The notes under the pieces: generated by a model
Told to the model about the DNA's origin: nothing
Databases searched by the model: none
Seen by the model: only the letters and a program-made list of their open reading frames with translations
Made by a program: the position numbers and the translations under genes
Shown here: in pieces, positions 14,923 through 53,031 of the stretch
How the letters are laid out: each line of letters starts with the position of its first letter
Position numbering within the stretch: the stretch's first letter is position 1
NCBI GenBank assembly: GCA_017858325.1
Contig: JAFMBT010000002.1
Location: 30,800 to 94,799, forward strand
DNA: 64,000 nt
Direction: 5' to 3'
Source of the DNA: Candidatus Planktophila sp.
GTDB lineage: Bacteria > Actinomycetota > Actinomycetes > Nanopelagicales > Nanopelagicaceae

Positions 14923-14924
14923 TT

Positions 14925-20596: not shown

Positions 20597-20611
20597 CAGA
20601 TACACTGCACC

Positions 20612-25858: not shown

Positions 25859-25931
25859 GCGTGCGTAGCTCAACGGATAGAGCATCTGACTACGGATCAG
25901 AAGGTTAGGGGTTCGAATCCCTTCGCGCGCA
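25859..25931 (+). tRNA. tRNA-Arg (anticodon ACG)
   Basis: A 73-nt cloverleaf was folded by hand. The acceptor is GCGTGCG/CGCGCGC, the anticodon stem TCTGA/TCAGA, the loop CTACGGA and the T arm AGGGG-TTCGAAT-CCCTT. No CCA is encoded, as the gene is followed by CAA. Confidence 0.9.
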
Positions 25932-25976
25932 CAAGAATCTCCATTAAATAACGCGGCTATGCCGTATCGAGACGCA

Positions 25977-30445: not shown

Positions 30446-31639
30446 CTAGTGGGCGTTGATAAATCGTTCGGTGGTCTCAACTGTGGTCTTATACATGCGA
30501 GAGAGTGAGAACTCGTGGTGTCCACCAAGCTCAGCTTTAGTCTCTTGCCCATTAGCGACAGCGAGAATTTCATTAAATATGCGATCACCAACTTGCGCCA
30601 GAGTTTCAATACCATCTGCGATAGTGCCGGCATCTAGATCGATTAAATCTGGAATTGCTTCATACATCGGAGTATTTGTCGAAACCTTAATGGTCGGCAT
30701 AATCGCTGATCCCGTTGGCGTTCCTCGCCCTGATGTGAAGACAACGATATTGATATGACCTGCGCCAAAACCTGCTAACTGTTCGATGTCATGGCCAGGA
30801 GTATCCATAAAGTAAAGTCCAGACGTTTTTGGTCGCTCCCCAAATTCCAAGACGCCTGTTAAAGGCGCATTACCCGCTTTTTTAGCTGCACCAAGTGACT
30901 TCTCTTCTAGCGTTGAGAGCCCACCTTCAATATTTCCGCGCGATGGTTGAGCACCGCGAATATCAATACCTTCATAATTAATCGAAGCCTCATAGCGCGA
31001 AACCATTGCCACAATTCGTTTACCAACCTCAGGATCAATTGCACGTGCCGCTAGTAGATGTTCTGCACCTAAAATTTCAGTTGTCTCGCCAAGTACTGAC
31101 GTTGCTCCCAATTCAACTAAGCGATCACTGGCTACACCGAGTGCGGGATTGGCGGTGATTCCAGAGAGCGCATCTGAACCGCCGCACTCTAGACCTAGAA
31201 CGAGAGCGCTCCAAGGAGCAGGAACTCGCTTCTCTTGAGCGGCATCGGCGCAATACTGATTGGCGATTTCAATCGCCTTTACGCGCAGCCCTTCCATCGA
31301 GCCGATCTCTGGAAGTGCGACATTGGTGAAGCGCTTTAGCCCAAGCGCCTGCGCGCTAGCGATAATTTCACTTTCATTATCTGAACCAACAGTAAGAAAG
31401 ACGACTGCAAAATTATTAGGATTAGCGGCATAACCACTGAAGGTAAAGATGATACGCGGTAGATCGTTATCAATTTCACCCGACCAGTCGTGGCTAATCG
31501 CAACTGCGCCATGAGAACCATCGGCGATCGCACGAGCAGTTGCTGAAAGGGCTGAATGAAGAGGCAAGATCAAGACGTGGTTACGAAGACCCCACTGTCC
31601 GTTATCGCGCTTAAATGCCCTTAGCTCACTACTCATCAA
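30446..31639 (-). CDS. UxaA/GarD-family sugar-acid dehydratase, large subunit
   Basis: It has GLRNHVLILP near the N-terminus and the GLECGGSDALSGITANPALG motif of the altronate/galactarate dehydratase C-terminal domain. Confidence 0.75.
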   Translation of the reverse strand: MMSSELRAFKRDNGQWGLRNHVLILPLHSALSATARAIADGSHGAVAISHDWSGEIDNDLPRIIFTFSGYAANPNNFAVVFLTVGSDNESEIIASAQALGLKRFTNVALPEIGSMEGLRVKAIEIANQYCADAAQEKRVPAPWSALVLGLECGGSDALSGITANPALGVASDRLVELGATSVLGETTEILGAEHLLAARAIDPEVGKRIVAMVSRYEASINYEGIDIRGAQPSRGNIEGGLSTLEEKSLGAAKKAGNAPLTGVLEFGERPKTSGLYFMDTPGHDIEQLAGFGAGHINIVVFTSGRGTPTGSAIMPTIKVSTNTPMYEAIPDLIDLDAGTIADGIETLAQVGDRIFNEILAVANGQETKAELGGHHEFSLSRMYKTTVETTERFINAH

Positions 31640-32454
31640 ACGCTCCTGACAACTCGTGGTGCGCGAATCTCACCACTTTTGTTTCGCTCGGCGACAGTCT
31701 GGCTACCAGCTGCCACTTGTGCAATCAAGGGAAGAATCTCGGCAATCAGGTTACTTTCTTGAATATCGAAATCGCCTGTGATCGCTTGGTGTAAAAATCC
31801 GCTGCTGGCCACGTTAATTACAGGTATCAATGGAAATCCAGATGCGGGCTGTGAATCATCCGGAAAGCTCACAATGATATGAGCCTTCTCTTGCGCCAGA
31901 CGAGTGAAACTTTCTGCAGAGCTAAATTCTGACTGTGATGTAATGACCTCATAACCGGCATCGTGCAATAACTTTTCAAGAGCAACTAACTCTTTCACCG
32001 GACGAGCTAGATCAATCCCAACACGCAGATGTTGAATTTCGGTAGAGGTTGCCGGATAAGCGTCGTTAAGTTCACCCGCTGCCTTCACTCCGGCAGCGAC
32101 AGTACCCTCCACTCCACCACTCTCTTGAATAATGCGATACTGCGTTGATTCATTGCTCTGAAGTAATTTAGCGGCTAACTCTTGCCCCTGAATAGTCTCG
32201 CAGCCAAGCGCGATAACAAGAACCGAATTCACATTTGGGTGATCTGCTAGTTGAATAAAGAAGTTATCAATTCCAGCGACATCTTCTCCGATGATGCCGC
32301 AACCGTGCTGGTGTGCGAAGGTAACTCCCTTAACTGCTTCAGCAATACGACGCGCAACATGAGTTGAGCAGACTACCGACGGAAGAATGAGTTGATGGTT
32401 ACGAATACCGACGCCGCGGTTACCGTGGCTAAATCCGGTTGTTACAGGACTCAT
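31636..32454 (-). CDS. UxaA-family 'second-domain' paralog (extra subunit)
   Basis: GIRNHQLILP, HQHGCG and ALGCETIQG align with the N-terminal half of the adjacent large subunit. It overlaps both neighbours by 4 nt. Confidence 0.6.
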   Translation of the reverse strand: MSPVTTGFSHGNRGVGIRNHQLILPSVVCSTHVARRIAEAVKGVTFAHQHGCGIIGEDVAGIDNFFIQLADHPNVNSVLVIALGCETIQGQELAAKLLQSNESTQYRIIQESGGVEGTVAAGVKAAGELNDAYPATSTEIQHLRVGIDLARPVKELVALEKLLHDAGYEVITSQSEFSSAESFTRLAQEKAHIIVSFPDDSQPASGFPLIPVINVASSGFLHQAITGDFDIQESNLIAEILPLIAQVAAGSQTVAERNKSGEIRAPRVVRSV

Positions 32455-32729
32455 GGCTTCTCCGTTGATAGTCGATCACCAAGAATATTGTGCACATGTA
32501 CATGCTCACCCACTGCAATAGGAGCTACCGCATGGCCCATACGTTCGCCATATTTGATGATGCCTTCTCCTTTAGCAATTTCCTTAGAGGCAATTTTATG
32601 ACCACGCGCTATACGGTTGATGACTTTAATTTTGATATTGTCTTGCTCGATAAGATCTCCAGCTTCTAGATCAACTAAGCAGACTGCCACATTGTCGCGA
32701 GCATCTAGAATCAAAAGCTTTCTCATCAC
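32451..32729 (-). CDS. UxaA-family small subunit (SAF domain)
   Basis: It is 92 aa, with DNVAV....L..GD and IARGHKIA typical of SAF/altronate dehydratase N-terminal domains. Confidence 0.7.
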   Translation of the reverse strand: MMRKLLILDARDNVAVCLVDLEAGDLIEQDNIKIKVINRIARGHKIASKEIAKGEGIIKYGERMGHAVAPIAVGEHVHVHNILGDRLSTEKP

Positions 32730-34099: not shown

Positions 34100-34208
34100 G
34101 CCTATAGGTTAGAGGAGATAGTCTCACTATGCACTTAGTTGCTTGATTTATATTATTTTTTGTAACTTAATAAATAATATGTGGTGCTTAATTCGGTAAT
34201 ATACGGAC

Positions 34209-35324
34209 ATGGCAAAGAAGTTAATCGTTCACGCTGGTTTTCATAAGACTGGAACCACAGCTCTGCAATCTACCTTTTTTGCAAACATAAATGCGTTAAT
34301 TAAATTTGGTATCTACTACCCACAAGTTGGTGGAAAAGCTCATCATAAAGCCATCTATTCCTTAATGGGAAAAACTTGGGGATGGGAAGACCGAGGAGGA
34401 GTAACAGCTACTGACAAAAAATGGAAAAACCTTGTAAGGCAGGTAGGTAAGATAAAGAAGACTGCCTTGATTAGCTCAGAATTCCTTTGTGAGTTAAATG
34501 AAGAACAAATCACTAAGTTTAGGAAAGAACTCAATGTAGCTGATACTCATATCTACTTCACGATAAGACCACTACTAAAAATTATCCCATCTGCATACCA
34601 GCAACATTTAAAGATTGGCATTAAGAGCGATTACGAAAAATGGCTACATTCAATTCTTGATGAACCTGGCGTATCGACAATTACTCCTTCCTTTTGGGTC
34701 AGACACACCCACGCCAAAGTAATTAGCAAATGGATTGCTGAATTCGGAGCTGATCGGGTCACACTTATTGTGGTCGATGAAGCTCAACCTGATATCTTGT
34801 ATGACACCTTTAGTGAACTGCTTGGATTACCAAGTAAATTCTTGAAGAAGCAAGAGAATCAAGATAGTAATCGTTCGCTATCGCTTAATGAGATCACTAT
34901 GCTAAATCGAATAAATCGACAGTTTCCAAAGCGTCGCAGTTGGCATGATTACGAAACTTTTATCCGCAACGGTGCAATTAAGTATTTAACAAACAAAGTT
35001 GAACCAGCTCAAGATGATTTACGTTTGCTAACTCCGCAATGGGCAGTAGATAAAGCAAAAGAGATCTCTGCTAATAGTGTCGCAGATATAAGGAAATTGG
35101 GTATTAACATTATTGGCGACCTAGATAGTTTTGAAGATGCTAAGGTGCTAATTGGAGATAATCCAGCAATCAAGATGATTCCAGTAGACCTAGCGGCGCA
35201 GGCGCTAATAGCCCTAGATCTACGCGTCGTCGAGACATTTCCAAAAAAATGGATACTGCAAAAATTGTGGAAAATGACGAAGCGAGATACCAAGAAATGG
35301 TTAAAGCAGGTGGTTAAGAAATAA
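34209..35324 (+). CDS. sulfotransferase-like protein, paralog 1 (uncharacterised family)
   Basis: It has a 5'-PSB-like loop (HKTGTTAL, residues 12-19) and a 3'-PB-like R-x7-S-x-Y motif (RPLLKIIPSAY, residues 120-130). It has a Lys-rich C-terminal tail. It is adjacent to a dedicated PAPS-synthesis operon. Confidence 0.55.
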   Translation: MAKKLIVHAGFHKTGTTALQSTFFANINALIKFGIYYPQVGGKAHHKAIYSLMGKTWGWEDRGGVTATDKKWKNLVRQVGKIKKTALISSEFLCELNEEQITKFRKELNVADTHIYFTIRPLLKIIPSAYQQHLKIGIKSDYEKWLHSILDEPGVSTITPSFWVRHTHAKVISKWIAEFGADRVTLIVVDEAQPDILYDTFSELLGLPSKFLKKQENQDSNRSLSLNEITMLNRINRQFPKRRSWHDYETFIRNGAIKYLTNKVEPAQDDLRLLTPQWAVDKAKEISANSVADIRKLGINIIGDLDSFEDAKVLIGDNPAIKMIPVDLAAQALIALDLRVVETFPKKWILQKLWKMTKRDTKKWLKQVVKK

Positions 35325-35370
35325 CTTAGCGAACCCATCTTGGGTGCGCACATAATTAATCAGATCAGTA

Positions 35371-35515
35371 CGGGGTGGCGGGCAATCGGAGTGCCTGGCT
35401 GCCAACGAGGTAGGGTTTCATCACCTTCGGGGGTTCAAATCGACGCGATTCTGCGCCCCTTCACCCTAACGTAGAACTTATGACAACTCTTCGGCCTTAA
35501 TTGGCTCGGATTTTT
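35371..35515 (+). promoter_or_regulatory. GC-rich candidate structured leader plus terminator-like hairpin upstream of cysD (class unknown)
   Basis: Nt 35371-35460 are about 63% G+C by hand count, within an AT-rich intergenic region. G-runs could pair with the CCCC at 35457-35460. A hairpin at 35492-35509 (CGGCC-TTAATT-GGC(T)CG) is followed by TTTTT at 35511-35515. Confidence 0.3.
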
Positions 35516-35570
35516 CAATTATACTACTGTTTCACAAAGTTTTATTAGGTTACACGCCTATAATTCACCA

Positions 35571-36476
35571 ATGAAAAGTTCCTCGGAGATTCTCAAAGCT
35601 CTAGAGAATGAATCTATAGAAATTCTGAGAGAGACCGCCGCTGCCTTTAGAAAGCCGGTCCTCCTTTATTCGATCGGTAAAGATTCTGCCGTTCTCCTAC
35701 ACCTTGCGATGAAAGCCTTTCACCCCGCCCAAATTCCATTTCCAGTTTTGCATATTGATACCACTTGGAAATTTAAAGAGATGATCTCTTTTAGAAGTGA
35801 AATGGCCGCCAGATACAATTTAAATTTGCTGGTGCATACCAATAAAGATGGTGTTTCCCAAGGAGTCACTCCCTTCAATACGGGTATATCGGAGTACACC
35901 AGAATTATGAAGACTGTTGCACTTAGGCAAGCTCTTGATGCAAACACCTTTGATGCAGCAATTGGTGGTTCTCGTAGAGATGAAGAGCGTAGCCGCGCCA
36001 AGGAGCGAATCTTTAGTGTCCGCGAATCAGGTCACAGGTGGGATCCGCGAAATCAACGCCCTGAACTCTGGCGAACATATAACCCAAAGATTACAAATGA
36101 ACAGAGTATGCGAGTTTTTCCTCTATCAGATTGGACTGAGCTAGATATTTGGAGTTATATACTTGAAAACGATGTGCCAGTTAACCCGCTCTATTTCGCA
36201 AAAGAACGCCCAGTAGTTTTTAGGGGCGAACAAATGATTATGATTGACGATGATCGATTCCCACTAATCAACGGTGAAAAGCCAGTTATGAAGCAAATTA
36301 GATTTAGAACCCTTGGCTGCTATCCATTGACAGCGGCCGTTGAGTCATCTGCATCAAACGTAGTTGAAATTGTTGAAGAAGTTATGAATGTAAAACTAAG
36401 CGAGCGAGCAACACGTTTAATTGATGGTGAAAAAGAAGATTCAATGGAGAAGAAAAAGACTGAAGGCTACTTCTGA
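35571..36476 (+). CDS. cysD: sulfate adenylyltransferase subunit 2
   Basis: It has the PP-loop [12 protein letters not shown], and its length and C-terminus (KKKTEGYF) are typical of CysD/NodP. Confidence 0.9.
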
Positions 36477-38299
36477 TGCTGCAGCCAATTATTAGATTAG
36501 TTACTTGTGGAAGTGTAGATGATGGAAAAAGTACGCTTATCGGCAGGCTATTGGTCGAAACAGATAGCGTCCCTCACGACACCGTCGCAGCGGCTCGCAA
36601 TATTCGGCGAACCGGATCAACTGTAATTGCAGGTGAAGTTGACTTTAGTTTATTAACCGATGGATTAGAAGCAGAACGCGAGCAGGGTATTACGATCGAT
36701 GTTGCGTATCGATCAATGACACTATTAAATGGAAGACGCCTAATAATTGCTGATGCTCCAGGCCATGAGCAATACACCAGAAATATGGCAGTTGCTGCCT
36801 CTAGGGCAGATGTTGCTTTAGTTTTAGTGGATGCTTCACGTGGAATTCGTACTCAAACTTTACGGCATTTAACTATTTGCTCTCTTATGGGCGTAAGCAG
36901 AGTTGCTGTTGTTGTAAATAAGTTAGATGCGGCAGGTTACTCCCAGAGTATATATGAAGAAATAGTTTCCGAGTTACTTGTTGCTGCAAATCGATTAGGT
37001 ATTAAAGATTATCAGGCTATCCCAGTCAGCGCTTTAGCTGGAGATAACGTGGTTGTGCGCAGTACAAATATGCCTTGGTATACAGGTCCAACTTTACTCG
37101 ATTATATTCAAAGTTGGAGTAAGCCCGAAGAGTTACTCACGAAACCTCATATGGGAGTACAACTAATTGCTCGTGCTGAGAATTTTAGAGGTATCTCCGG
37201 AACAATTCTTAATGGAACGTTTATTTTGGGCGATGAAGTTGTTATTCTACCAAGTCGACGCAAGGCAGTGATCTCAGAAATTCTAACTTACGATGGGAAA
37301 CTTGAACGCGCTGGCGACTCAGAGGCGATAACGCTGGTACTCGAACCGGAGGTTGATGCAACTCGTGGGGATTCAATTGAACTTGCAAGTAATTTTACTC
37401 CACCTGCCGATCGATTCAATGCGAATATTGTTTGGCTAGGTGAGACTCAACTAGTTCATAGCCGCTCATATTTATTGATATCCGGTTCTACCCAAGTCCC
37501 TGCAATAGTTTCTAAAATCAGGCATAAAGTCGAAATTGCTACAGGAGACCACGAAGCTGCTGACGAACTCTCAATGAATGAAATTGGCGTTATCGAAATC
37601 GCGACAGATGCTCCAATTGCACTGACTCCATATGTAGAGCAGCGCAACACCGGCTGTTTTATTCTTGTTGATCGAAGCACACTAAATACTGTTGCCGCTG
37701 GAATGGTTAATCATGTATTACGTAGGTCTGAAAATGTCACAGAACACAAGTATGAAATTAATGCCCTAGCTCGAGCATCTCAGAAAAATCAACGCGCAAA
37801 AGTAATTTGGCTTACTGGATTATCGGGTTCCGGCAAGTCGACTATCGCCAACGAACTCGAAAAGACCTTGTTTACGTCAGGAATGCATTGTTATGTCCTT
37901 GACGGGGATAACCTGCGCATGGGAATTAACAAAGATCTCGGTTTTACCCGCGCAGACCGTGCAGAAAATGTCAGGAGGGTTGCTGAAATTGCGCACCTAA
38001 TGTCTGATGCGGGGCTGATTGTGATCGTTGCTTTAGTGAGTCCATTTGCGAGTGATCGTGATAGTGCGCGCGAGATTTTTGAGCAAGGAAGATTTGCTGA
38101 AGTTTGGGTAAAAACTCCACTTGAGATATGTACCGAACGAGACCCTAAAGGTCTCTATAAAAAAGCGGCAGACGGGACATTGCCTAACTTGAGTGGAGTT
38201 GGCCAGGAGTATGAACCGCCGACTAGCCCTGAGTTAGTTCTAGACGGGACTGAATTGGTATCTGAAAATGTGAGAAAAATAATCAAGGAACTGCTTTGA
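36476..38299 (+). CDS. cysNC: bifunctional sulfate adenylyltransferase subunit 1 (GTPase) / adenylylsulfate (APS) kinase
   Basis: Its GTPase motifs are GSVDDGKST, DAPGH and NKLD. The C-terminal APS-kinase domain has the P-loop GLSGSGKSTIA. Its ATG overlaps the cysD stop. Confidence 0.9.
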   Translation: MLQPIIRLVTCGSVDDGKSTLIGRLLVETDSVPHDTVAAARNIRRTGSTVIAGEVDFSLLTDGLEAEREQGITIDVAYRSMTLLNGRRLIIADAPGHEQYTRNMAVAASRADVALVLVDASRGIRTQTLRHLTICSLMGVSRVAVVVNKLDAAGYSQSIYEEIVSELLVAANRLGIKDYQAIPVSALAGDNVVVRSTNMPWYTGPTLLDYIQSWSKPEELLTKPHMGVQLIARAENFRGISGTILNGTFILGDEVVILPSRRKAVISEILTYDGKLERAGDSEAITLVLEPEVDATRGDSIELASNFTPPADRFNANIVWLGETQLVHSRSYLLISGSTQVPAIVSKIRHKVEIATGDHEAADELSMNEIGVIEIATDAPIALTPYVEQRNTGCFILVDRSTLNTVAAGMVNHVLRRSENVTEHKYEINALARASQKNQRAKVIWLTGLSGSGKSTIANELEKTLFTSGMHCYVLDGDNLRMGINKDLGFTRADRAENVRRVAEIAHLMSDAGLIVIVALVSPFASDRDSAREIFEQGRFAEVWVKTPLEICTERDPKGLYKKAADGTLPNLSGVGQEYEPPTSPELVLDGTELVSENVRKIIKELL

Positions 38300-39051
38300 A
38301 CTGGATGTTATTTGCCCTCGCCGGCTCGATAGCCCAATTGATTGATGGTTCGCTCGGAATGGGTTTTGGATTAACTAGTTCAACCCTACTATTGACCTTA
38401 GGGGCATCTGCAGCAGTTGCATCCGCTGCGGTACACGCAGCCGAGATTGGAACAACTCTGGCATCAGGTGCATCTCATTGGCATAGAGATAATATTGATC
38501 GCACAATTTTAAAACAATTAGCAATTCCAGGTGGGATTGGAGCGCTCTTAGGAGCCACATTCCTCTCCAATATTGATTTATCAGGTGGAAAAATCTTCAT
38601 TTCAACAATTTTATTGCTACTAGGATTTCTACTTCTCTATCGAAATCTCTTTGTTACTCAATCACAAGTGAGCATCGCTGATGTATCCAATCCTCGCTAC
38701 CTAACATTTTTAGGGTTTTCAGGAGGTTTTGTCGATGCATCGGGTGGTGGCGGATGGGGACCTGTAGTTACTCCAACACTCCTGGCAACAACGAAGACTG
38801 AACCCCGCAAAGTAATTGGGACTGTATCGGCAGCCGAGTTTATTGTCGCCGTCTGCGCAAGCGTAGGCTTTCTATTCAATATAAATAAGCTCGATATAGA
38901 TTGGGCAGTAGTAGGCGGTCTTGCATTAGGTGGGATATTGATGGCTCCAATCGCAGCAAGATTTGTGAGTTGGGTTCCACGTAAACAACTGGGAATTATT
39001 GTCGCTATTGCAATTATTTTAATTAATGCGTTTCGTTTGTTGGGTGTGTAA
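38296..39051 (+). CDS. TauE/SafE-family anion permease (TTG start at 38296 or ATG at 38305)
   Basis: It is 251 aa with about 7-8 TM segments and a Gly-rich internal repeat typical of the TauE/4-toluene-sulfonate-uptake family. It overlaps the cysNC stop and the start of the following gene. Confidence 0.65.
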   Translation: MNWMLFALAGSIAQLIDGSLGMGFGLTSSTLLLTLGASAAVASAAVHAAEIGTTLASGASHWHRDNIDRTILKQLAIPGGIGALLGATFLSNIDLSGGKIFISTILLLLGFLLLYRNLFVTQSQVSIADVSNPRYLTFLGFSGGFVDASGGGGWGPVVTPTLLATTKTEPRKVIGTVSAAEFIVAVCASVGFLFNINKLDIDWAVVGGLALGGILMAPIAARFVSWVPRKQLGIIVAIAIILINAFRLLGV

Positions 39052-40163
39052 TGAGTAAACATCTAGTAGCACACGTAGGATTTCACAAGACTGGAACCAC
39101 GGCTTTACAAGAGAGTTTTGCCGCTAATCGCAAATCTCTCAAGGCGCAAGGCGTTGTTTACCCTAACTTTGGACAACGAGCGCATCACCGGGCGACGTGG
39201 GCGCTAATTGGACGTACCTGGGGTTGGAAGAATAGAGGGGGAAGGGCTTACGCGATAAAGGAGTGGAAGCGTTTGGTCCGCGCGATAAATAAGAGCCGAA
39301 AGACCGCTCTCATCAGTAGTGAGTTTTTCTGTGAGTTATCCACAGAGCAAATCCAAAAATTTAAGGCGGATATTAAATCTGATCAATTCACTATTGTTTT
39401 TACAATCAGGCCCTTGGTGAAACTCCTATCTTCTTCATACCAGCAGTATCTAAAATACGGGTTAACTCCTAATTATGAAGAGTGGCTCCACTCAGTTCTC
39501 GACAAACCTGGAGAATCTAAGTTAACTCCAACTTTTTGGAAACGGCATAACCACGCTGGCGTGATTACAAAGTGGGTAGAAGTTTTTGGAGCTAATAACA
39601 TAGTAGTAGTGGTTGCTGATGAAAAGGTGCCCACTGCTATTTTTGATGCCTTCAACTCAATTCTAAATCTTTCAAAAGATACCTTGACTCAGCCGGAAGG
39701 TTTATCAAGTAATCGTTCGTTAACATACGAAGAGATATCACTGTTGCTAGAAATTAATCGAAATTTTCCGGAAGAACGAGATTGGTCTGATTACGCGATT
39801 TATATTCGCGATGGGGCAATTAGGCATCTGACGGATACCGTAAAACCAGCAAATAATTCCTTGAAACTTCAAACCCCAGAATGGGCTGAGAAGATCGCCA
39901 GAGAAATCAGCGCCTTATCTGTCTCAAAAATTAAAGCCTCTGGGGTTCGTATTATCGGCAATTTAGATGACTTTGATACCGCTGAAATACTCATCGGAGA
40001 AAATTCAGTGGTCAGCACAATTTCAGTTGAGACGGCAGCCCAAGCTATTGTTGCTATAGGTCAGAATTCATTGAAACGACAGAGCACTAAAGTTATCTTT
40101 AAAGAGGCTAAAAGACGTCTTAAGAAGAGATTGCGTTTAGGAAAGAAACGTTCTAAACGTTAG
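39051..40163 (+). CDS. sulfotransferase-like protein, paralog 2
   Basis: It is collinear with paralog 1 (HKTGTTALQ; RPLVKLLSSSY) and ends in a very basic tail, KEAKRRLKKRLRLGKKRSKR. Its ATG shares one nt with the permease stop. Confidence 0.55.
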   Translation: MSKHLVAHVGFHKTGTTALQESFAANRKSLKAQGVVYPNFGQRAHHRATWALIGRTWGWKNRGGRAYAIKEWKRLVRAINKSRKTALISSEFFCELSTEQIQKFKADIKSDQFTIVFTIRPLVKLLSSSYQQYLKYGLTPNYEEWLHSVLDKPGESKLTPTFWKRHNHAGVITKWVEVFGANNIVVVVADEKVPTAIFDAFNSILNLSKDTLTQPEGLSSNRSLTYEEISLLLEINRNFPEERDWSDYAIYIRDGAIRHLTDTVKPANNSLKLQTPEWAEKIAREISALSVSKIKASGVRIIGNLDDFDTAEILIGENSVVSTISVETAAQAIVAIGQNSLKRQSTKVIFKEAKRRLKKRLRLGKKRSKR

Positions 40164-40172
40164 AGATAGGTT

Positions 40173-40868
40173 TTAATCTAGTAACTTATTAGCACGATCT
40201 AGATCAGCCTGAAAATCTACTTCGATTGCGAATAGGTCTGAGATATCTACCGGTTCTATTTGAATGCCACTTTTTTCAATTGCAAGTTCTAATCCACGCT
40301 CAAAGTAATCTTGATCCTCACAAGCTCTTAATTGGGTAATGACATCTTCTTTATGGCTCGCGGAGATGAAGTTGATTCCGACTGCTTCACCTAGCGCACC
40401 TTGGACTTTCTTCGAAAGTTCTTTGATAAAACCTTTCTCATCAATTGTGTACTTAACTTCTTCTTCGGCGGTAGCTGAAGTATTTACACAGACAAAGGAT
40501 TTTTCAGATTCAACACGAGATAGAACTCTCTCTAAAACTTTTACATCAAAAACTACATCTCCATTTAGCCAAAGTACGCCTGAATCTTGGCTTGCGACTA
40601 AAGCTTTCAAGAGGCTTTTTGAGGTATTTGTCTGATCGTAAACTTCGTTATAAACAAAAGATACAGCTGGGTGGGCTTCGATAATCATCTCCAACTTAAA
40701 ACCGACTACAACTGTGATCCGCGCCTTGTCACCAAAGGCTTGCACGATATTATCCATTTGCTGCTGCATTATTGAACGCCCGTCAGATAAGACTGTAAGT
40801 GGTTTCGGCCAAGGCTTTGCTAATCTTGTCCCCATACCCGCTGCCAAAATTACAACCTGAATAGCCAT
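40173..40868 (-). CDS. LicC/IPCT-like nucleotidyltransferase (phospho-alcohol cytidylyltransferase family)
   Basis: It has ILAAGMGTRL...KPL and YNEVYDQTNTSKSL, which parallel LicC-type small-molecule cytidylyltransferases, at 231 aa. Confidence 0.65.
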   Translation of the reverse strand: MAIQVVILAAGMGTRLAKPWPKPLTVLSDGRSIMQQQMDNIVQAFGDKARITVVVGFKLEMIIEAHPAVSFVYNEVYDQTNTSKSLLKALVASQDSGVLWLNGDVVFDVKVLERVLSRVESEKSFVCVNTSATAEEEVKYTIDEKGFIKELSKKVQGALGEAVGINFISASHKEDVITQLRACEDQDYFERGLELAIEKSGIQIEPVDISDLFAIEVDFQADLDRANKLLD

Positions 40869-41007
40869 TTATCCCTCTAGACCTAACAATGTCGAAAATA
40901 TCGCTTAGGCAGGATAGATTACCGCTTATGGTAGGAATTCTTTGTATCTCTGGTACGTATCTCCAAAATAGGATCACTTCTCAGATGCAAAACCAAGGTG
41001 CAGTGCG

Positions 41008-41781
41008 ATGACCGACAGACCGCCGCGCCCAACAATTGCGCAAATTCGCGAAATTTCACAACCAATCTCAGTAACCGGTCGACCTACATCAGAACACTGG
41101 ATTGCAGATCTTTACTTACGACGACTCTCACCATACTTAACACGGATTTTTCTACGCACCCCAATTTCAGCAAATGGCGTAACTTGGCTAATGATATTTA
41201 CAGGAGCTTCAATTGGACCCGCTCTACTTATTCAAGGATGGGTAGGGATAGCACTTGCTCTCTTCCTAAGCCAACTACAAATGCTAATTGACTGCTGTGA
41301 TGGTGAAGTAGCACGATGGAGAAATACAAAGTCTCCAATGGGAATTTTCTTAGATAAGTTAGGTCATTACTTTGCAGAGTGCTTAATACCGCTCTGCCTA
41401 GGGCTACGACTCGCTGGTTGGCCAAGTGAATCAGTAACCACTTCGATTTACCCCTATTTTGGAGCACTGCTTGCGATACTCGTACTGATTAATAAGGGTT
41501 TAAATGACGCAGTACATGTAGCAAGGGCCTTTTCAGGGTTAGAGAAAATTCAAGATACAAAGGGAGTAAATCTCCCAGTTAAAGGGCTATTACGTCAGTT
41601 GCGCAAAGTATTTAACTACCTTCCTGCGCATAGGATATTCCATTCAGTTGAGTTCACTATTCTTATCGCAATTTTTGGAAGCTATGGTCAAGCACTGACA
41701 ATTGCACTCGGTATTGCTTTCTTTGTTACGTTAGGACATATTACTGCAATTGTAACTTCTTCTAAATTGAAGAATATATAA
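41008..41781 (+). CDS. CDP-alcohol phosphotransferase family membrane protein with a variant motif (last Asp replaced by His)
   Basis: The motif DCCDGEVAR-x8-G-IFL-D-KLG-H was read from nt 41290-41370. The protein is a multi-TM protein of 257 aa. Confidence 0.75.
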   Translation: MTDRPPRPTIAQIREISQPISVTGRPTSEHWIADLYLRRLSPYLTRIFLRTPISANGVTWLMIFTGASIGPALLIQGWVGIALALFLSQLQMLIDCCDGEVARWRNTKSPMGIFLDKLGHYFAECLIPLCLGLRLAGWPSESVTTSIYPYFGALLAILVLINKGLNDAVHVARAFSGLEKIQDTKGVNLPVKGLLRQLRKVFNYLPAHRIFHSVEFTILIAIFGSYGQALTIALGIAFFVTLGHITAIVTSSKLKNI

Positions 41782-41782
41782 A

Positions 41783-42553
41783 ATGAAACTTGTTGCAACA
41801 GAGATGTATTACGCACTCACCGAACTATTCACAACCAACAAATATAGATTGGTCTTATTAGGATTAGCGCTAATTGCAGCGATGATTTCAGTATCCGAAT
41901 TAGCTGTTGCAAAACTATTTACTAAGATAATTCTGGATGAAGGAACAATTAGTGAGACAATGTTTGCAGTTCTTGTGGCATTTTTCTTCTTATTCTTTGG
42001 AGTTACTAGAGGTGGACACTTTCTTCAACGCATCTATCGAGTTAGATTTATTGATAAAGCATTTCAGGTTTCTAGGCGTAAAAAAAGTGTTGTGAAAGAG
42101 AATTGGCATTGGTCTCTAGCATTTGAGTTAACAAATTTACTTAGTACATTTACACAACTTGCCGTAGTAATTTCAATTTTTACCTATATTAATTGGCAAT
42201 TTGGAGTCATTAATCTCTTGATTATTATGGCGGTTTTTCAATTCTATGGCAAACTCTTTCGTCAACAGATCCAAGCTCAACGTGGGTTTGTTGTAGCAAA
42301 GAAGAATAAGAGTCATGTTCCAAGTGTTGTGCGGATTGGGACTCGCATCAAGTCCGGAGAAACTGGAATTCTTGTATCCAGTATTGCGATGTTAATTCTC
42401 TTAGCGCTGCTCATTTACCTCAGTCATATAGGTGATGTAAGTAAAGCAAATACAATTGTCCTATTCTTTGGCTTAAGAATACAAAACTCCAATTTCGCCC
42501 ATATTTCAACGTCTTTGATGAGATTCGCAAGAGCGCGAACCCATAGCGAGTAA
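41783..42553 (+). CDS. polytopic membrane protein resembling the N-terminal part of an ABC-exporter transmembrane domain; no ATPase domain
   Basis: It has about 5 hydrophobic segments. The beginning (YRLVLLGLALIAAMISVSELAVAKLFTKII) resembles type I ABC exporter TM1. It starts 1 nt after the previous stop. Confidence 0.4.
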   Translation: MKLVATEMYYALTELFTTNKYRLVLLGLALIAAMISVSELAVAKLFTKIILDEGTISETMFAVLVAFFFLFFGVTRGGHFLQRIYRVRFIDKAFQVSRRKKSVVKENWHWSLAFELTNLLSTFTQLAVVISIFTYINWQFGVINLLIIMAVFQFYGKLFRQQIQAQRGFVVAKKNKSHVPSVVRIGTRIKSGETGILVSSIAMLILLALLIYLSHIGDVSKANTIVLFFGLRIQNSNFAHISTSLMRFARARTHSE

Positions 42554-42575
42554 GAATCGCGATATATTAGGGGCT

Positions 42576-44201
42576 ATGAAAAACACTTTTCAAACAATTA
42601 GCGTCAGTGAAGATACGAAAATTTATGAAATAATTTCCGCTTATGTCGAAAGTGATTCTGATTTAATCTTGATTGATGAGACATCTGTGTTTAGCCAGCC
42701 ACATTTGGAACTTCTTACTGACTATCCACGATCTACCACAACAGCGCTCATAGCTCCGCTTTACGAAGGAGAAACAAGAGCAACGGGCGGAAGAGTCCTA
42801 GGAGCATCTTCCTCGTTTCACATTGCAGGTGGAGGTAATAGTACTTTTGTTGGCGTCTTGCGACTTTCCCAAAACCAGCGAGAAGAGGTAATTGAGACTC
42901 TCACTGCGGCAAGCAAATCCGATATTAAAGGTAATGCACTCGACTTAGTACTGGTCGCATTAGTTAGGGCTGGGGTATTTGTTGGTACCGCTGAAGTCTC
43001 CTTTGCCCCGTATATCCGTAGTAAAGATGCGCGAATGAGAGAGAAAATTAGGGTAGAGATTGAGTCACTAAATGAAGCCAGACTACGCTTAAAAATGGCG
43101 AACCGCGCTAATGATGGCTTCTTCTCAGTCTTTGTGCTTCGTAAATTCTCCAAGTTATTTACTTGGGCGGCTGTGCGTTTACGAGTTACTCCAAATCAAA
43201 TAACACTTATCTCTTTCGGTATTGGCCTACTTTCAGCTTACGCATTTAGTCGCGGAAACTTTTGGTCTATTTTTACTGGAGCCCTTTTGCTGCAGTTGAG
43301 CATAATTGTCGATTGTGTCGATGGTGAGCTGGCTCGATACACACGAAAGTTCTCACAACTTGGCGCTTGGCTGGATGCCATCACTGATCGCATAAAAGAG
43401 TACTTAGTCTTCTTTGGCCTGGCCTACGGTGCAGCAAGAGATGGCCGAGATCTTTGGATTCCTGCAATGGCTATGATGCTTTTTCAGGCAGTTAGACACC
43501 TTTCAGATTACAACTTTGCACGTATGAGTAAGTTGAGAAGAACCAAATTACCAATAATTGACTTTAAACTTGCAAGCGATGGCTTTATTCCCTTGAAGAA
43601 GGCGAAAAAATCGCGTGTGCAATACTGGGCCAAGAAAGCGATTCAGTTTCCTATCGGTGAACGTTGGTTAGTCATCAGCGCGTCATCTGTAATTGGTGGA
43701 GCAGCCTTTACCTTCACAATAATGCCAATTTTAGCGGTGATATCCATTGTTCTGGTTTTTAGAGGTCGCATACGTGCAACAAGGCGTTGGGCGAAGGAGC
43801 GAATTAATAAAGAACTAATTGATAATCAATTAGATTTTTTTAAAAGCACTAAATCAAATAATAGATTTGATTGGCTCACCCCCTCTATTCTACGTGCCTT
43901 TGAAGGAGTGGTGATTATTGGGCTGACAGTAATCGCGGATTTAAATCGCCCAATCGCATTCTTATTACTCTTTGCAATTATCTATGGGCACTATGACAAT
44001 CTTTATCGAGCACTACAGGGTGAACATAAACCAAGGTGGCTTTCATTAGCTGGTGTTTTCATCCTAGGTCGGCTAGCAATACTTGTAATCTTTATAGCCC
44101 TTTCGTGGTCCATATCTTCACTAGCTTGGTATTTTGGCACCCTATTCCTGGTGGTGTCATCTATCCAGTGGGTAACTAGTCAAAAATTAAGAGTTATCTA
44201 G
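42576..44201 (+). CDS. large CDP-alcohol phosphotransferase: N-terminal soluble domain, canonical CDP-OH-P transferase core and extra C-terminal TM region
   Basis: It has the complete motif DCVDGELAR-x8-G-AWL-D-AIT-D. An N-terminal segment of about 180 aa is non-membrane and lacks a GxGTR motif. The C-terminal 150 aa or so are hydrophobic. Confidence 0.75.
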   Translation: MKNTFQTISVSEDTKIYEIISAYVESDSDLILIDETSVFSQPHLELLTDYPRSTTTALIAPLYEGETRATGGRVLGASSSFHIAGGGNSTFVGVLRLSQNQREEVIETLTAASKSDIKGNALDLVLVALVRAGVFVGTAEVSFAPYIRSKDARMREKIRVEIESLNEARLRLKMANRANDGFFSVFVLRKFSKLFTWAAVRLRVTPNQITLISFGIGLLSAYAFSRGNFWSIFTGALLLQLSIIVDCVDGELARYTRKFSQLGAWLDAITDRIKEYLVFFGLAYGAARDGRDLWIPAMAMMLFQAVRHLSDYNFARMSKLRRTKLPIIDFKLASDGFIPLKKAKKSRVQYWAKKAIQFPIGERWLVISASSVIGGAAFTFTIMPILAVISIVLVFRGRIRATRRWAKERINKELIDNQLDFFKSTKSNNRFDWLTPSILRAFEGVVIIGLTVIADLNRPIAFLLLFAIIYGHYDNLYRALQGEHKPRWLSLAGVFILGRLAILVIFIALSWSISSLAWYFGTLFLVVSSIQWVTSQKLRVI

Positions 44202-44966
44202 ATGAGCGAGAAGATTTTAACGATCGGCTATTCCACACTTGCCCATCGTGTCAAAAATATCTCACCACCCGAGGTAAACCTGGAATATGAAGTATTGATA
44301 TCGATACAAAATCCTGAAAATCTTGATTTTACTCTTCCAAGTAACTTTGAGTTCAAATCTATAAAATCTAACGATAAGGGCGTTGCTAAGAGCCGAAATG
44401 TAGTTTTGAAGAACACGACAACTAAGTATTTACTATTTGCCGATGATGAGATCGTGTTCTTAAGCGATGGGATTAAATCCACAATTTCTTACTTAGAAAA
44501 TAATCCAGATTGTGATTTAGTTTTGACTAGAGCTATAGATAAAAATGGCGTACTGCGTAAGGATTATTCATCCAAGGAAGAGAATTTAACTAAGTTCAAT
44601 TCTGCAAAAGTGGCAACCTACGAAATGATTGTCAGGGTTAATAGCGCTAGGAGTATGGGCGTAGTGTTCGATGAGAAATTTGGTGCTGGCGTCGAAAATT
44701 ATTTAGGTGATGAGTACATATTCATTACCGACTTATTAAAAAAGGGTGGCAAGGCAGTTTTCTTGCCTGTAACCATTGCCATCCACCCTGAAGAAAGCTC
44801 TGGAAGTCGCTGGGGAACTGAGTCAGATTTGCGAGCACGAGCTCAGGTTTTTCAAAGAGTTTTTGGCCGCTACGCCCCGTTTGTCAGAATAGCTTTCTAT
44901 CTTAAAAATTTCCGTAAGTTTGGCGGGCTTAGGAACTTAGCCAAGTTCAGTATTGGAAAGGTTTAA
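44202..44966 (+). CDS. family 2 glycosyltransferase
   Basis: It is 254 aa with a GT-A-like N-terminus, the acidic motif LFADDEIVF, and a start codon abutting the previous stop. Confidence 0.6.
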   Translation: MSEKILTIGYSTLAHRVKNISPPEVNLEYEVLISIQNPENLDFTLPSNFEFKSIKSNDKGVAKSRNVVLKNTTTKYLLFADDEIVFLSDGIKSTISYLENNPDCDLVLTRAIDKNGVLRKDYSSKEENLTKFNSAKVATYEMIVRVNSARSMGVVFDEKFGAGVENYLGDEYIFITDLLKKGGKAVFLPVTIAIHPEESSGSRWGTESDLRARAQVFQRVFGRYAPFVRIAFYLKNFRKFGGLRNLAKFSIGKV

Positions 44967-45159: not shown

Positions 45160-45786
45160 GTGCCTAAAGAGATAAGCAAAGAAGAGGCAAAAGAGATTGT
45201 TACAACTCTTGCAGCAGGTTCTGTTCGAACAATTGTTGGCATAATAGGAAAGCCTGGTGGAGGAAAATCTACACTTTCAAAGTTCTTGCTGAAAGGCTCA
45301 GATCCCTTGCTCGTCTCAGTATTACCTATGGATGGATTTCATCTGAGTAATAAAGTGTTGAAATCGTTAGGTCGTTCCCAAAGAAAGGGCGCTCCTGATA
45401 CCTTCGACGTAAAAGGTTTTACGCGCGTAATTGAGAGAGTTGCACACGAGCACAATGATTCGATCTACTACCCAATCTTTGATCGCTCTATCGAAGAGTC
45501 AATAGCGGCTCAAGGTGTAGTTTTGCCAAGCACCCGTGTGGTTATCGTTGAAGGTAATTACCTAATGCACGATCGTGATGGTTGGCAGGATGTCTCACCC
45601 TTACTCAATCAGAGCTGGTATGCCTATCTGGATGAGGAGGTGAGGATTTCCCGACTAATCTCTCGCCATATCGCTTTTGGCAAAGACCCAGAGAGCGCCA
45701 AAGCGTGGGCAAAGGGGACCGATCAACGCAATGCAGACCTTATTGAGGCAGGTGTTGCACGTTGTGATTTTCTCGTTCGCATGTGA
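45160..45786 (+). CDS. P-loop nucleoside/nucleotide kinase family protein (Udk/PRK-like), GTG start
   Basis: It has the Walker A motif GKPGGGKSTL and LPMDGFH, at 208 aa. Confidence 0.55.
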   Translation: MPKEISKEEAKEIVTTLAAGSVRTIVGIIGKPGGGKSTLSKFLLKGSDPLLVSVLPMDGFHLSNKVLKSLGRSQRKGAPDTFDVKGFTRVIERVAHEHNDSIYYPIFDRSIEESIAAQGVVLPSTRVVIVEGNYLMHDRDGWQDVSPLLNQSWYAYLDEEVRISRLISRHIAFGKDPESAKAWAKGTDQRNADLIEAGVARCDFLVRM

Positions 45787-45798
45787 ATACCCGTATAG

Positions 45799-47270
<1,472 letters not shown>

Positions 47271-51264: not shown

Positions 51265-53031
51265 ATGGCGCGCAATCTTGTTAATCTCGAAGGAGTAAGT
51301 AAGGCCTTTGATATTCGCGCATTACTGGTGAAAGTCTCAATCGGGGTTTCAGAGGGCGATCGAATTGGAATTGTTGGCCGAAATGGCGCCGGCAAAAGTA
51401 CTTTAATGAAAATAATTGCAGGGATAGAAAGTCCTGATGAGGGTCGCGTTACTCAGGGAAATTCTGTGCGCGTAGGAATGCTTTCGCAGGTAGATGTTGC
51501 GGATAAAAATGCAACAGTAGGCGATATCGTAATTGGCAATCGAGCTAAACATGAGTGGGCAAGTGATCCCAAGATTCGTGAAGTCTTTACCGGACTCTTT
51601 GGCGGCTTTGATGATCATCTCTTTGAGAGGGTATTTATCACACTCTCTGGAGGTGAGAAGCGGAGAGTGGGGCTAGCAAAACTTCTCATCGATGAACTTG
51701 ATCTTATTATGCTCGATGAACCAACGAATCATCTCGATGTTGAAGGCGTGGATTGGCTTGCGCGACACTTAAACGTGAGAAAAGATTTAGCAGTCCTAGT
51801 TGTCACTCACGATCGCTGGTTCTTAGATGCAGTTACTGATCGCACCTGGGAAGTTGTCTCTGGCGCTCTCGAAGAATATGACGGCGGCTACTCAGCCTAT
51901 GTTTTGGCAAAGGCAGAGCGTGCTCGCCAGGCAAGTGCGATGGATGCGCGGCGAAATAGTCTCATAAGAAAAGAACTTGCCTGGCTTCGTCGTGGTGCGC
52001 CAGCACAAACTGTGAAACCAAAATTCCGTGTTGATGCGGCAAATGAACTGATTAGCAGCGAACCTGCACCACGAGATAAATCAGAGCTACTTAAATTTGC
52101 ACTGAATCGCCTTGGTCGAACGGTCCTTGAATATCAACATGCAAAGATTTCAGCAGGTGATAAAGAGTTAATTAGTGAATTGACGTGGAATATCGGCCCC
52201 GGTGATCGCTTCGGAATAGTGGGAGTAAATGGTGCTGGCAAAACAACGCTCATGCGCACTATGGCTTCAGAAATTGATGTAGCAGCAGGAAAACTTGTCA
52301 CCGGTATTACTGTGAAGATTGCATTTCTTACCCAGCATTTAGATGAGCTAGATCCAACATGGCGAGTACTTGAAGCAGTTGAGAATGTGGCTAATCATAT
52401 TGAGATAGGTAAAGGACGCACGCTTTCAGCCTCTCAACTCTGTGAGCGACTTGGCTTTGACCGCGATGGGCAATGGACCCCTGTTGGGGATCTTTCAGGT
52501 GGCGAGAAGAGACGTCTGCAATTAACTCGGTTGTTAATGGATTCTCCGAATGTGCTCTTACTTGATGAGCCAACAAATGATTTTGATATCGAAACCTTGA
52601 CTGAGCTCGAGGATCTATTAGATAGCTATGGGGGGACACTCATTGTGATCTCCCATGATCGGTATTTCCTAGAACGCGTCTGTGATCGCTTTGTTGGCCT
52701 TATGGGTGACCAAGAGCTTCGCGATCTACCTCGGGGCGTTGATCAATATCTAGAACACCGCGCACAGTCATCATCACATACTTCACAGGGCAATTCAGGG
52801 AAAGTATCGAGCGCCGCGCAAGAACGAGCGCTGAAAAAGGATCTCACCAGAGTTGAAAGACAGATACAGAAAGCGAAAGAGAAGGTTGCAAAGCTGGCTC
52901 TTGAACAAGAAAGTGCATCCTTTGATGCAACCAGATTAAGTGAAATTTCAATAGAACTTGGTCAACTAGAGAAGGAATTAGTAGCACGAGAAGAAGAGTG
53001 GCTTGAAATTACTCTTAAATTAGAAAATTAG
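51265..53031 (+). CDS. ABC-F family ATPase (translation-factor type, no TM domain)
   Basis: It has two Walker A motifs (GRNGAGKST, GVNGAGKTT), two LSGGEKRR signatures and a C-terminal coiled-coil-like tail. Confidence 0.85.
   Translation: MARNLVNLEGVSKAFDIRALLVKVSIGVSEGDRIGIVGRNGAGKSTLMKIIAGIESPDEGRVTQGNSVRVGMLSQVDVADKNATVGDIVIGNRAKHEWASDPKIREVFTGLFGGFDDHLFERVFITLSGGEKRRVGLAKLLIDELDLIMLDEPTNHLDVEGVDWLARHLNVRKDLAVLVVTHDRWFLDAVTDRTWEVVSGALEEYDGGYSAYVLAKAERARQASAMDARRNSLIRKELAWLRRGAPAQTVKPKFRVDAANELISSEPAPRDKSELLKFALNRLGRTVLEYQHAKISAGDKELISELTWNIGPGDRFGIVGVNGAGKTTLMRTMASEIDVAAGKLVTGITVKIAFLTQHLDELDPTWRVLEAVENVANHIEIGKGRTLSASQLCERLGFDRDGQWTPVGDLSGGEKRRLQLTRLLMDSPNVLLLDEPTNDFDIETLTELEDLLDSYGGTLIVISHDRYFLERVCDRFVGLMGDQELRDLPRGVDQYLEHRAQSSSHTSQGNSGKVSSAAQERALKKDLTRVERQIQKAKEKVAKLALEQESASFDATRLSEISIELGQLEKELVAREEEWLEITLKLEN

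Follow-up and report, generated by a model that had tools for sequence, protein, structure and literature searches.

A variable tRNA-associated locus of Candidatus Planktophila combines sulfate activation and an undescribed sulfotransferase family with a CDP-alcohol module, and may make a sulfated envelope glycoconjugate

In several bacteria, the supply of 3'-phosphoadenosine 5'-phosphosulfate (PAPS) is coupled to a sulfotransferase acting on a secreted or envelope glycoconjugate, as with NodP/NodQ and NodH in Sinorhizobium or CysDNC and Stf0 in Mycobacterium tuberculosis. We analyzed a locus of this general kind in Candidatus Planktophila (acI/Nanopelagicales, freshwater Actinobacteria), within a stretch of 64,000 nucleotides that we call the window and to which all positions refer. 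As in the two model systems, cysD and cysN(-cysC) are coupled here to a sulfotransferase gene, with CysN and CysC fused as in Actinobacteria generally. Unlike in those systems, the sulfotransferase family has no Pfam or NCBIfam model, a DUF81 permease belongs to the cassette, the host lacks sulfate assimilation, and the partner is a cytidine diphosphate (CDP)-alcohol module rather than a Nod-factor or trehalose-lipid pathway. On balance, and with a little more than even confidence, we read the locus as one variant of a variable, tRNA-associated surface region whose most likely product is an envelope glycoconjugate with sulfate and phosphodiester groups, assembled on the inner side of the membrane.

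Other parts of the locus also have described counterparts. IPCT/DIPPS and AF2299 (Archaeoglobus), which use soluble CDP-alcohols, pair an NTP_transf_3-type cytidylyltransferase with a full-motif phosphotransferase, as is the case here, and their cytosolic N-domain of ~160 residues is similar in length to that of the large Planktophila phosphotransferase (CDPL). Unlike in the fused IPCT/DIPPS, the nucleotidyltransferase (NTP) and CDPL genes of Planktophila are split and divergent, and CDPL has gained a DUF5941 domain; the module also holds a small phosphotransferase with a His-variant motif (CDPs), a GT-A enzyme, an ATP-binding cassette (ABC)-type protein and sulfotransferases, with no inositol-phosphate synthase nearby. 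MsbA and PglK, both type-IV ABC exporters, are flippases for lipid A or lipid-linked oligosaccharides. The ABC-type protein of the module (256 amino acids) is predicted to share with them a membrane domain of six long helices and an N-terminal elbow helix, but it lacks a nucleotide-binding domain, has no detectable sequence similarity to them and falls ~50 residues below the usual size of the membrane domain. Sulfated polysaccharides of Vibrio and Cobetia are products of Gram-negative capsule clusters with capsule export machinery. Sulfotransferases and cysN-type sulfate-activation genes reportedly occur, as here, in the marine clusters of Vibrio sp. KMM 8419 and Cobetia marina KMM 1449 (PMC11641403, PMC11766843); the Planktophila locus, by comparison, lacks a polymerase or complete exporter and has a CDP-alcohol phosphotransferase module. 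Our literature search found no description combining a CDP-alcohol phosphotransferase, a sulfotransferase and cysN. What is already known is PAPS supply beside a sulfotransferase, along with variable surface-glycan islands in Planktophila; what is new is the pairing with a classical-motif CDP-alcohol module, an undescribed family of sulfotransferases, a phosphotransferase with a His-variant motif, an ABC-type membrane protein lacking an ATPase and the setting in streamlined sulfur auxotrophs.

We call the two proteins of about 370 residues ST1 and ST2; with 51% identity (E 3e-134), they are paralogs. The closest database relative of ST2 is 99% identical and comes from Candidatus Planktophila sp., while ST1 orthologs (64-91% identity) adjoin the CDP module or guaB in other genomes; for such comparisons we scanned one genome per species and mapped the window proteins onto 80 loci; these, and the loci of a metagenome scan described below, are cited by L-number. 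Neither protein has a significant Pfam, NCBIfam or PDB sequence match: ST1 does not match Sulfotransfer_1, Sulfotransfer_3 or Sulfotransfer_4, and ST2 reaches 16.3 bits against Sulfotransfer_1, below the cutoff of 22. With nothing usable from these searches, the call as sulfotransferases had to come from structure prediction. For ST2, an AlphaFold2 model derived from 35 homologs had a mean predicted local distance difference test score (pLDDT) of 87.5 and a predicted template modeling score (pTM) of 0.83, and its top 16 Foldseek matches in the PDB were all PAPS sulfotransferases (probability 0.92-1.00, and 1.00 for the top 13). The best of these were 3rnl, the NDST1 sulfotransferase domain and heparan 3-O-sulfotransferases, that is, carbohydrate sulfotransferases.

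Conserved residues point the same way. In the GFHKTGTTALQ loop, K13, G15 and T16 are invariant or nearly so across the family, and R120 and S128 (RPL...S) are invariant in 46 distant members, seven of which match Sulfotransfer_4. The family profile aligns with the 'IGPQKTGTTAL' of NDST1, its 5'-phosphosulfate-binding (5'-PSB) loop, and with the 'LRNPVDRAFS' of 3rnl, its 3'-phosphate-binding (3'-PB) motif, although the E-values of these alignments are not significant by themselves. The catalytic base of sulfotransferases is a His in cytosolic enzymes and a Glu in heparan sulfotransferases; the candidate here is E91, which lies in an SSE motif after strand 85-89 and is invariant in the family. 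An earlier reading of the window, made from its sequence only, had called both 370-aa proteins sulfotransferase-like. The fold (the ST2 model, and for ST1 its identity to ST2) and the PAPS-binding motifs agree with this call, and no confident non-sulfotransferase fold came up. ST1 and ST2 belong to an undescribed sulfotransferase family that no Pfam model captures and that counts 16,478 representative clusters at E<=1e-3. In our proposal, both would sulfate sugar hydroxyl or amino groups. Some family members have composite architectures: P0283 (981 aa) fuses the sulfotransferase domain to a family 2 glycosyltransferase (GT2) and a TarS linker, P0349 joins a family 4 glycosyltransferase (GT4) to the sulfotransferase domain, and P0241 and P0246, of ~800 aa, each contain two sulfotransferase-family stretches.

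The genes between ST1 and ST2 encode the means to make PAPS. CysD scores 469 bits against TIGR02039 (cutoff 397) and the CysN-CysC fusion 751 bits against NF004035 (cutoff 715), so that both calls of the sequence-only reading are borne out by curated NCBIfam cutoffs; the APS_kinase domain is present at full length (residues 441-590 of the fusion). The permease that follows matches TauE/SafE (PF01925) with 132 bits. Its gene stands directly after cysNC in almost all related loci carrying the cassette, and the order cysD-cysNC-TauE-ST is kept in about 25 loci, including isolates of a second genus (L046, L051). In Corynebacterium glutamicum, genetic evidence identifies the DUF81 protein CysZ (Cg3112), whose gene is a neighbor of cysDN, as the high-affinity sulfate transporter (PMC1266029). 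Since this protein imports sulfate, we consider that the Planktophila permease is more likely a sulfate importer of the CysZ type than a sulfite exporter. In both actinobacteria a DUF81/TauE membrane protein is encoded directly downstream of cysDN, a likeness of family and position; the C. glutamicum operon (cysIXHDNYZ) is assimilatory, whereas the Planktophila cassette ends in a sulfotransferase gene.

What would such a cell do with PAPS? A 2025 study reports that none of 72 new Nanopelagicales isolates, nor any earlier one, has all the genes for assimilatory sulfate reduction (PMC12817590), and we found no cysH, sir or cysIJ within the 64-kb window. A host that does not reduce PAPS further would use it as a sulfuryl donor. 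The dedicated PAPS source claimed from the sequence is thus in keeping with the incomplete assimilatory pathway of Nanopelagicales isolates.

Downstream of ST2 lies the CDP-alcohol module. NTP matches PF12804 with 59 bits, carries the LAAGMGTRL signature and has the phosphonate cytidylyltransferase PntC as its best solved relative (6pd1, 1e-6). It also matches the IPCT half of NF041135 (5e-7; 29 bits against a cutoff of 580), and in Nanopelagicaceae loci it is always paired with CDPL. The assignment to NTP_transf_3 is confirmed, and the match behind the earlier label 'LicC-like' is weak. NTP is a probable CTP:phospho-alcohol cytidylyltransferase, going by these family matches. The two CDP-alcohol phosphotransferase calls stand well above the Pfam cutoff of 22 for CDP-OH_P_transf, with 36.3 bits for CDPs and 44.7 bits for CDPL. 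In CDPs the motif reads DCCDGEVAR...GIFLDKLGH, where H120 replaces the fourth Asp and is invariant in 17 orthologs; CDPs may be either a variant enzyme or a partner without catalytic activity. CDPL has the full motif (DCVDGELAR...GAWLDAITD) in a catalytic membrane domain, which is preceded by the cytosolic N-domain and followed by the DUF5941 membrane domain at the C-terminus. Its best solved relatives are AF2299 (3e-15) and IPCT/DIPPS (2e-14), and its best curated match is NF041135 (IPCT/DIPPS; 1.5e-21, 76.9 bits against an equivalog cutoff of 580); both phosphotransferases match archaetidylinositol-phosphate and phosphatidylinositol-phosphate (PIP) synthases as well as DIPPS. The N-terminal 175 residues of CDPL contain no domain detectable at E<=5. 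Among the matches listed for CDPL, the homolog search returned only close relatives (at least 68% identity). Our literature search found no mention of DUF5941, and no inositol-phosphate synthase was found in the 64-kb window.

The remaining two proteins of the module are harder to place by sequence. The AlphaFold2 model of the 256-aa protein has a pLDDT of 80, and its top 50 Foldseek matches in the PDB are all type-IV ABC exporters (MsbA, with a TM-score of 0.65-0.69 on the query, and PglK). The chain ends after the sixth helix. There is no Pfam match and no PDB sequence or profile match to this protein, so the earlier label 'ABC-TMD-like' finds support in the predicted fold and none in the sequence. 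No transporter-type ABC_tran gene is present in the module or its flanks, the sole nearby ABC ATPase being of the ABC-F type (51265-53031). The 256-aa family has 449 members, all from the same habitat. The GT2-like protein just passes the Pfam cutoff (PF00535, 23.9 bits against 23.3), which retains the earlier GT2 call as a marginal one; it has a FADDE motif of the DXD type and TarS as its best PDB match (5tze, E 0.001), and in 22 loci its gene is conserved as the last of the module.

The association of sulfotransferase genes with these modules recurs in dozens of genomes, in agreement with the linkage that the sequence-only reading expected in relatives, and the juxtaposition in the window is therefore not accidental. 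Thirty of the 68 sulfotransferase genes with a readable downstream flank have NTP or CDPL within 2.5 kb downstream. Where both flanks are readable (58 genes), 46 adjoin the PAPS cassette, the CDP module or both: 19 have the PAPS cassette upstream only, 25 the CDP module downstream only and 2 both. The five-gene module (NTP, CDPL, CDPs, the 256-aa protein and the GT2-like protein) is kept down to 36-60% identity with a varying internal order, and in one genome (CANNIM...) the PAPS cassette and the CDP module lie on different contigs, where each is accompanied by a sulfotransferase gene of its own (L019, L057). In Microbacteriaceae, the sulfotransferase and CDPL genes form a conserved pair. In the closed Microbacteriaceae genome MiE-23b (L054, 82-12865), this pair ends a rhamnan-type wall-polysaccharide cluster in the order RgpF, GT4, epimerase, GT2, ABC-2 permease, ABC ATPase, RmlC, RmlD, RmlA, RmlB, an unannotated 285-aa open reading frame (ORF), sulfotransferase and CDPL. 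In L012, a 613-aa protein encoded at 11197-13038, between the ST1-type gene and NTP, has a PS_pyruv_trans domain and an unassigned N-terminal half. A gap of ~1.9 kb separates the ST1-type gene from NTP also in L013, L015, L017, L019, L021, L022 and L032. The arrangement in the window is one combination of widespread modules, not a one-off island of 11 kb.

The region also bears the marks of a variable site. The 246 nucleotides before cysD, first described as a leader, contain the decayed 3' 63 nucleotides of a tRNA-Ser(GCU). In a local alignment with the intact tRNA-Ser(GCU) of L004 (positions 29-91), this remnant scores 28, and none of 500 shuffles exceeded 13; ARAGORN and Rfam called no tRNA there. 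A riboswitch or leader RNA upstream of cysD was rejected, as Rfam at E<=10 returned only chance matches and the fold z-score was -1.5. Elsewhere, an intact tRNA-Ser(GCU) or a repeat of its 3' half lies upstream of cysD at a distance of 46 nucleotides (L004, L002) or ~850 nucleotides (L006, L157, L003), and L002 and L131 have an intact tRNA plus a direct repeat of the 3' half. In L129, L135 and L138, the tRNA-Ser is followed directly by guaB, leaving the slot without a cassette. By its sequence and position, the remnant in the window appears to be an integration scar; we found no second tRNA-Ser repeat in the window and no integrase gene. The functional tRNA-Ser(GCU) of the genome lies outside the window.

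A metagenome scan anchored on guaB showed how the slot is filled in relatives. The closest ones (L082-L085) have guaB 90-94% identical and the neighboring 208-aa protein 80-84% identical, with the same downstream genes, and differ in their content to the left. In the same slot (L082 913-9360, also L083-L085) they carry a YCII protein and TauE-cysNC-cysD on the opposite strand at 63-76% identity, together with a 300-aa Sulfotransfer_1/Sulfotransfer_3 protein, two GT2 and one GT28-like protein, all upstream of the 208-aa protein and guaB. To the left of this cassette, L082, L083 and L085 have a tRNA-Arg(ACG), which many genomes carry close to the locus. In the window, an FprA-like flavin adenine dinucleotide (FAD) oxidoreductase gene (24561-25835) is followed by tRNA-Arg(ACG); in many relatives, this gene directly adjoins guaB, from which it follows that ~20 kb (25.9-45.2 kb) have been inserted or rearranged here. 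The tRNA-Arg at ~25.9 kb is probably the left limit of the variable region, beyond the boundary drawn in the sequence-only reading. Planktophila genomes are known to contain GI1, a replacement island for cell-surface structures, and the tRNA-flanked, additive islands GI2-GI4 (PMC12817590). Like these islands, our region varies in content among close relatives, holds glycosyltransferase and surface-modification genes and has tRNA flanks; by this analogy, the alternative cassettes in one slot appear to follow the pattern of the replacement surface-glycan islands. The same paper does not mention 'sulfotransferase', 'PAPS' or 'cysN', nor CDP-alcohol phosphotransferases, all of which the Planktophila locus has.

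The features of the region are collected in Table 1.

Table 1. Genes and RNA features of the sulfation/CDP-alcohol region and its flanks in the window
Feature	Position	Strand	Remarks
tRNA-Arg(ACG)	25859-25932	+	ARAGORN and Rfam
ST1	34209-35324	+	soluble 371-aa sulfotransferase-family paralog; HKTGTT and RPL..S motifs; no transmembrane segment
tRNA-Ser(GCU), decayed 3' half, putative att-like scar	35393-35457	+	between ST1 and cysD
cysD, sulfate adenylyltransferase small subunit	35571-36476	+	TIGR02039
cysN-cysC fusion (sulfate adenylyltransferase GTPase subunit + adenosine 5'-phosphosulfate (APS) kinase)	36476-38299	+	NF004035
TauE/SafE (DUF81) permease	38296-39051	+	PF01925
ST2	39051-40163	+	soluble 370-aa sulfotransferase, strongly basic C-terminal tail
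NTP_transf_3 nucleotidyltransferase (NTP)	40173-40868	-	PF12804
Small CDP-alcohol phosphotransferase variant (CDPs)	41008-41781	+	PF01066
256-aa membrane protein, ABC-exporter-like transmembrane-domain fold	41783-42553	+	predicted fold
Large CDP-alcohol phosphotransferase (CDPL)	42576-44201	+	PF01066 + PF19365 (DUF5941)
Small soluble GT-A (GT2-like) glycosyltransferase	44202-44966	+	PF00535
Conserved right flank: 208-aa P-loop protein and guaB (IMPDH)	45160-47244	+	

The ORF positions and order proposed earlier match the ORF calls in the window, and the short overlaps of 1-4 nucleotides between cysD and cysNC, cysNC and TauE, and TauE and ST2 are present in the coordinates; another gene caller places the TauE start at ATG 38305. 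NTP is convergent with ST2, as proposed, across a gap of 9 nucleotides, and divergent from the downstream operon across a spacer of 139 nucleotides. The same gene order is found on an identical 81-kb metagenome contig. ST1, ST2, NTP and the GT2-like protein are predicted to be soluble, and CDPs, the 256-aa protein and CDPL to lie in the membrane. The contrast in G+C content claimed earlier (17-38% in parts of the island against 50-62% in flanking housekeeping genes) turned out to be an artefact of extreme single lines of 60 nucleotides, since the housekeeping flanks span 20-65% per line. The island has a mean G+C of 41.8% against 46.4% in the rest of the window, a difference of 4.6 points; per-gene values are 37-44% against 43-49%, and third-position G+C in the island is not clearly different from the rest. 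Promoter and terminator scans between 33.9 and 45.9 kb gave counts at or below shuffle expectation.

Elsewhere in the window, three consecutive ORFs on the reverse strand (30446-32729) together encode an altronate/galactarate dehydratase-like enzyme; they are of 92 aa (SAF domain), 272 aa (GD_AH_second) and 397 aa (GD_AH_second and GD_AH_C) and adjoin an alpha-L-fucosidase and an aldo-keto reductase. A sugar-acid utilization cluster (12563-21838) comprises a solute-binding protein, two ABC permeases, two tandem UxuA (mannonate dehydratase) paralogs, a LacI regulator, a PfkB kinase and a flavin mononucleotide (FMN)-dependent dehydrogenase. At 60007-60232, tRNA-Ser(GGA) (reverse strand) and the small signal recognition particle (SRP) RNA (forward strand) stand back to back just upstream of dnaX. 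AT-skew is near 0 in the window except at 10001-11000 (+0.22) and 14001-16000 (about -0.15).

How could these proteins work together? We propose that the DUF81/TauE permease would import sulfate, which CysD and CysN-CysC, going by their family membership, would convert to PAPS. The soluble ST1 and ST2, sulfotransferases by fold and motifs, would then sulfate sugar residues of a membrane-bound intermediate. NTP would make a CDP-alcohol, probably CDP-glycerol or CDP-inositol, from which CDPL, possibly with the His-variant CDPs, would move the phospho-alcohol to a membrane-bound acceptor, so that sulfate and phosphodiester would sit on one molecule. The small GT-A enzyme would add a sugar, and the ATPase-less ABC-type protein could serve as flippase, channel or scaffold for the lipid-linked product. 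At the surface, this product would face diversifying selection, with phages and grazers as the probable agents, which would explain why near relatives have a different cassette for sulfation and glycosyl transfer. The rhamnan cluster of L054, the TarS-type and GT4 fusions and the pyruvyl transferase of L012 suggest an envelope glycan as the target, and so do the glycosyltransferase-rich replacement cassette, TarS as a relative of the GT2-like protein and the carbohydrate-sulfotransferase neighbors of ST2. The sulfated, phosphodiester-linked glycoconjugate envisaged in the sequence-only reading keeps its sulfation logic and its surface-glycan theme; the product itself, the activated alcohol and the acceptor we infer.

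Several observations weigh against an envelope glycoconjugate made by the whole locus. The fold matches of ST2 have moderate target TM-scores (0.52-0.59 for the best, 0.38-0.59 across the top 16). No backbone polymerase, priming glycosyltransferase of the TagO/WecA type, Wzx/Wzy, LCP ligase or complete ABC exporter was found in the window, and a wall polymer would therefore need genes located elsewhere. The best sequence relatives of CDPL (AF2299, DIPPS and PIP synthases) yield soluble compounds or lipids rather than glycan decorations, and classical-motif CDP-alcohol phosphotransferases are not known to decorate a glycan. FtaD of Clostridioides difficile was considered as an example of an enzyme that moves a phospho-alcohol to a glycan and was rejected: it is TagF-like, without the classical motif, and offers a loose analogy. 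Base composition was dropped as a sign of foreign origin, the signal being too weak. Finally, loci with both the PAPS cassette and the CDP module are outnumbered by loci with one of the two, which speaks against taking a single shared product for granted.

The gaps in the polymer machinery fit more easily with a sulfated phospholipid or phosphoglycolipid, in which a Kennedy-type CDP-alcohol (e.g. CDP-inositol) would be joined to diacylglycerol or another lipid, glycosylated, sulfated and flipped by the MsbA-like protein. We regard this explanation as rather unlikely, though it deserves real weight: CDPL and CDPs do match archaetidylinositol-phosphate and PIP synthases, the 256-aa protein finds its best fold matches in the flippases MsbA and PglK, the locus lacks a polymerase or complete exporter, and a basic C-terminal tail, as in ST2, is in keeping with attachment to the membrane. 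Actinobacteria are known to make sulfated glycolipids, such as sulfolipid-1 of M. tuberculosis via Stf0 and CysDNC. However, the rhamnan context of L054, the TarS-type fusion, the L012-type pyruvyl transferase and the replacement by three glycosyltransferases point to glycans larger than a head group, and a replacement island would be unusual for core membrane lipids. The same phosphotransferase relatives could also suggest a soluble polyol-phosphodiester solute, made by a split IPCT/DIPPS-like pair, glycosylated or sulfated, and kept in the cytoplasm or excreted. Here CDPL has IPCT/DIPPS as its best curated match and AF2299 and IPCT/DIPPS as solved relatives, and NTP matches the IPCT half of NF041135, but the 77 bits of CDPL remain far from the cutoff of 580. 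The extra DUF5941 membrane domain, the second membrane phosphotransferase and the ABC-type membrane protein of the module also weigh against a solute, as do the lack of an inositol-phosphate synthase or phosphatase in the module and the glycan contexts of the relatives; nor would osmolytes be expected in a dilute freshwater habitat. There is little chance that this explanation is correct.

The separation of the PAPS cassette from the CDP module in most genomes raises another question: were two unrelated modules joined by island accretion? The PAPS cassette and ST2 would then serve one target and the CDP module would make an unsulfated conjugate, their adjacency being incidental. The counts given above (19 upstream only, 25 downstream only, 2 both), the tRNA scar that parts ST1 from cysD and the shuffled gene order within and between modules are all compatible with such a history. 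Against it, the CDP module has its own sulfotransferase-family gene directly upstream in about 25-30 loci, those of Microbacteriaceae included. A sulfotransferase beside the CDP module needs PAPS, which makes the modules interdependent even when they lie apart, as in the single genome that contains L019 and L057. We judge an incidental joining improbable. Even less credible, to the point that we give it hardly any weight, is ordinary sulfur assimilation, with cysD, cysN-cysC and the permease feeding cysteine synthesis beside unrelated housekeeping genes. It is true that CysD and CysN belong to the same families as in assimilation, and that a DUF81 permease accompanies cysDN in an assimilatory operon of C. 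glutamicum (PMC1266029). Yet Nanopelagicales isolates lack complete assimilatory sulfate reduction and the window lacks cysH, sir and cysIJ; the CysC fusion makes PAPS, in about 25 loci the cassette and a sulfotransferase gene are coupled in translation, and the divergent cassette of near relatives again comes with a sulfotransferase.

A wider proposal can be put forward, tentatively, as we think it more likely wrong than right. The sulfotransferase family, CDPL with its DUF5941 domain, the His-variant CDPs and the ATPase-less ABC-type protein might together constitute an unrecognized pathway for a sulfated, polyol-phosphate (teichoic-acid-like) envelope glycopolymer or lipoglycan, in which classical-motif phosphotransferases would build or decorate a glycan and not a phospholipid. 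Sulfur auxotrophs would then keep sulfate uptake and activation solely for their surface, diversified by island replacement under pressure from phages and grazers.

Nanopelagicales are dominant lake bacterioplankton with tiny genomes and no sulfate assimilation. If such genomes nevertheless keep a putative sulfate importer, a PAPS pathway consuming GTP and ATP and one or two sulfotransferases, selection for a sulfated structure at the surface must be strong. The locus defines three uncharacterized protein families (the sulfotransferases, the DUF5941 phosphotransferases with their His-variant partner and the ATPase-less ABC-type protein), which can be tested in Rhodoluna, a genetically tractable relative with established genome editing (PMC11577799). 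If our interpretation is true, it would account for the 'orphan' cysDNC genes of these sulfur auxotrophs and point to a biogenic origin, so far overlooked, of sulfated organic matter in freshwater. It would also give a chemical basis to the surface variability that is thought to drive evasion of phages and grazers.

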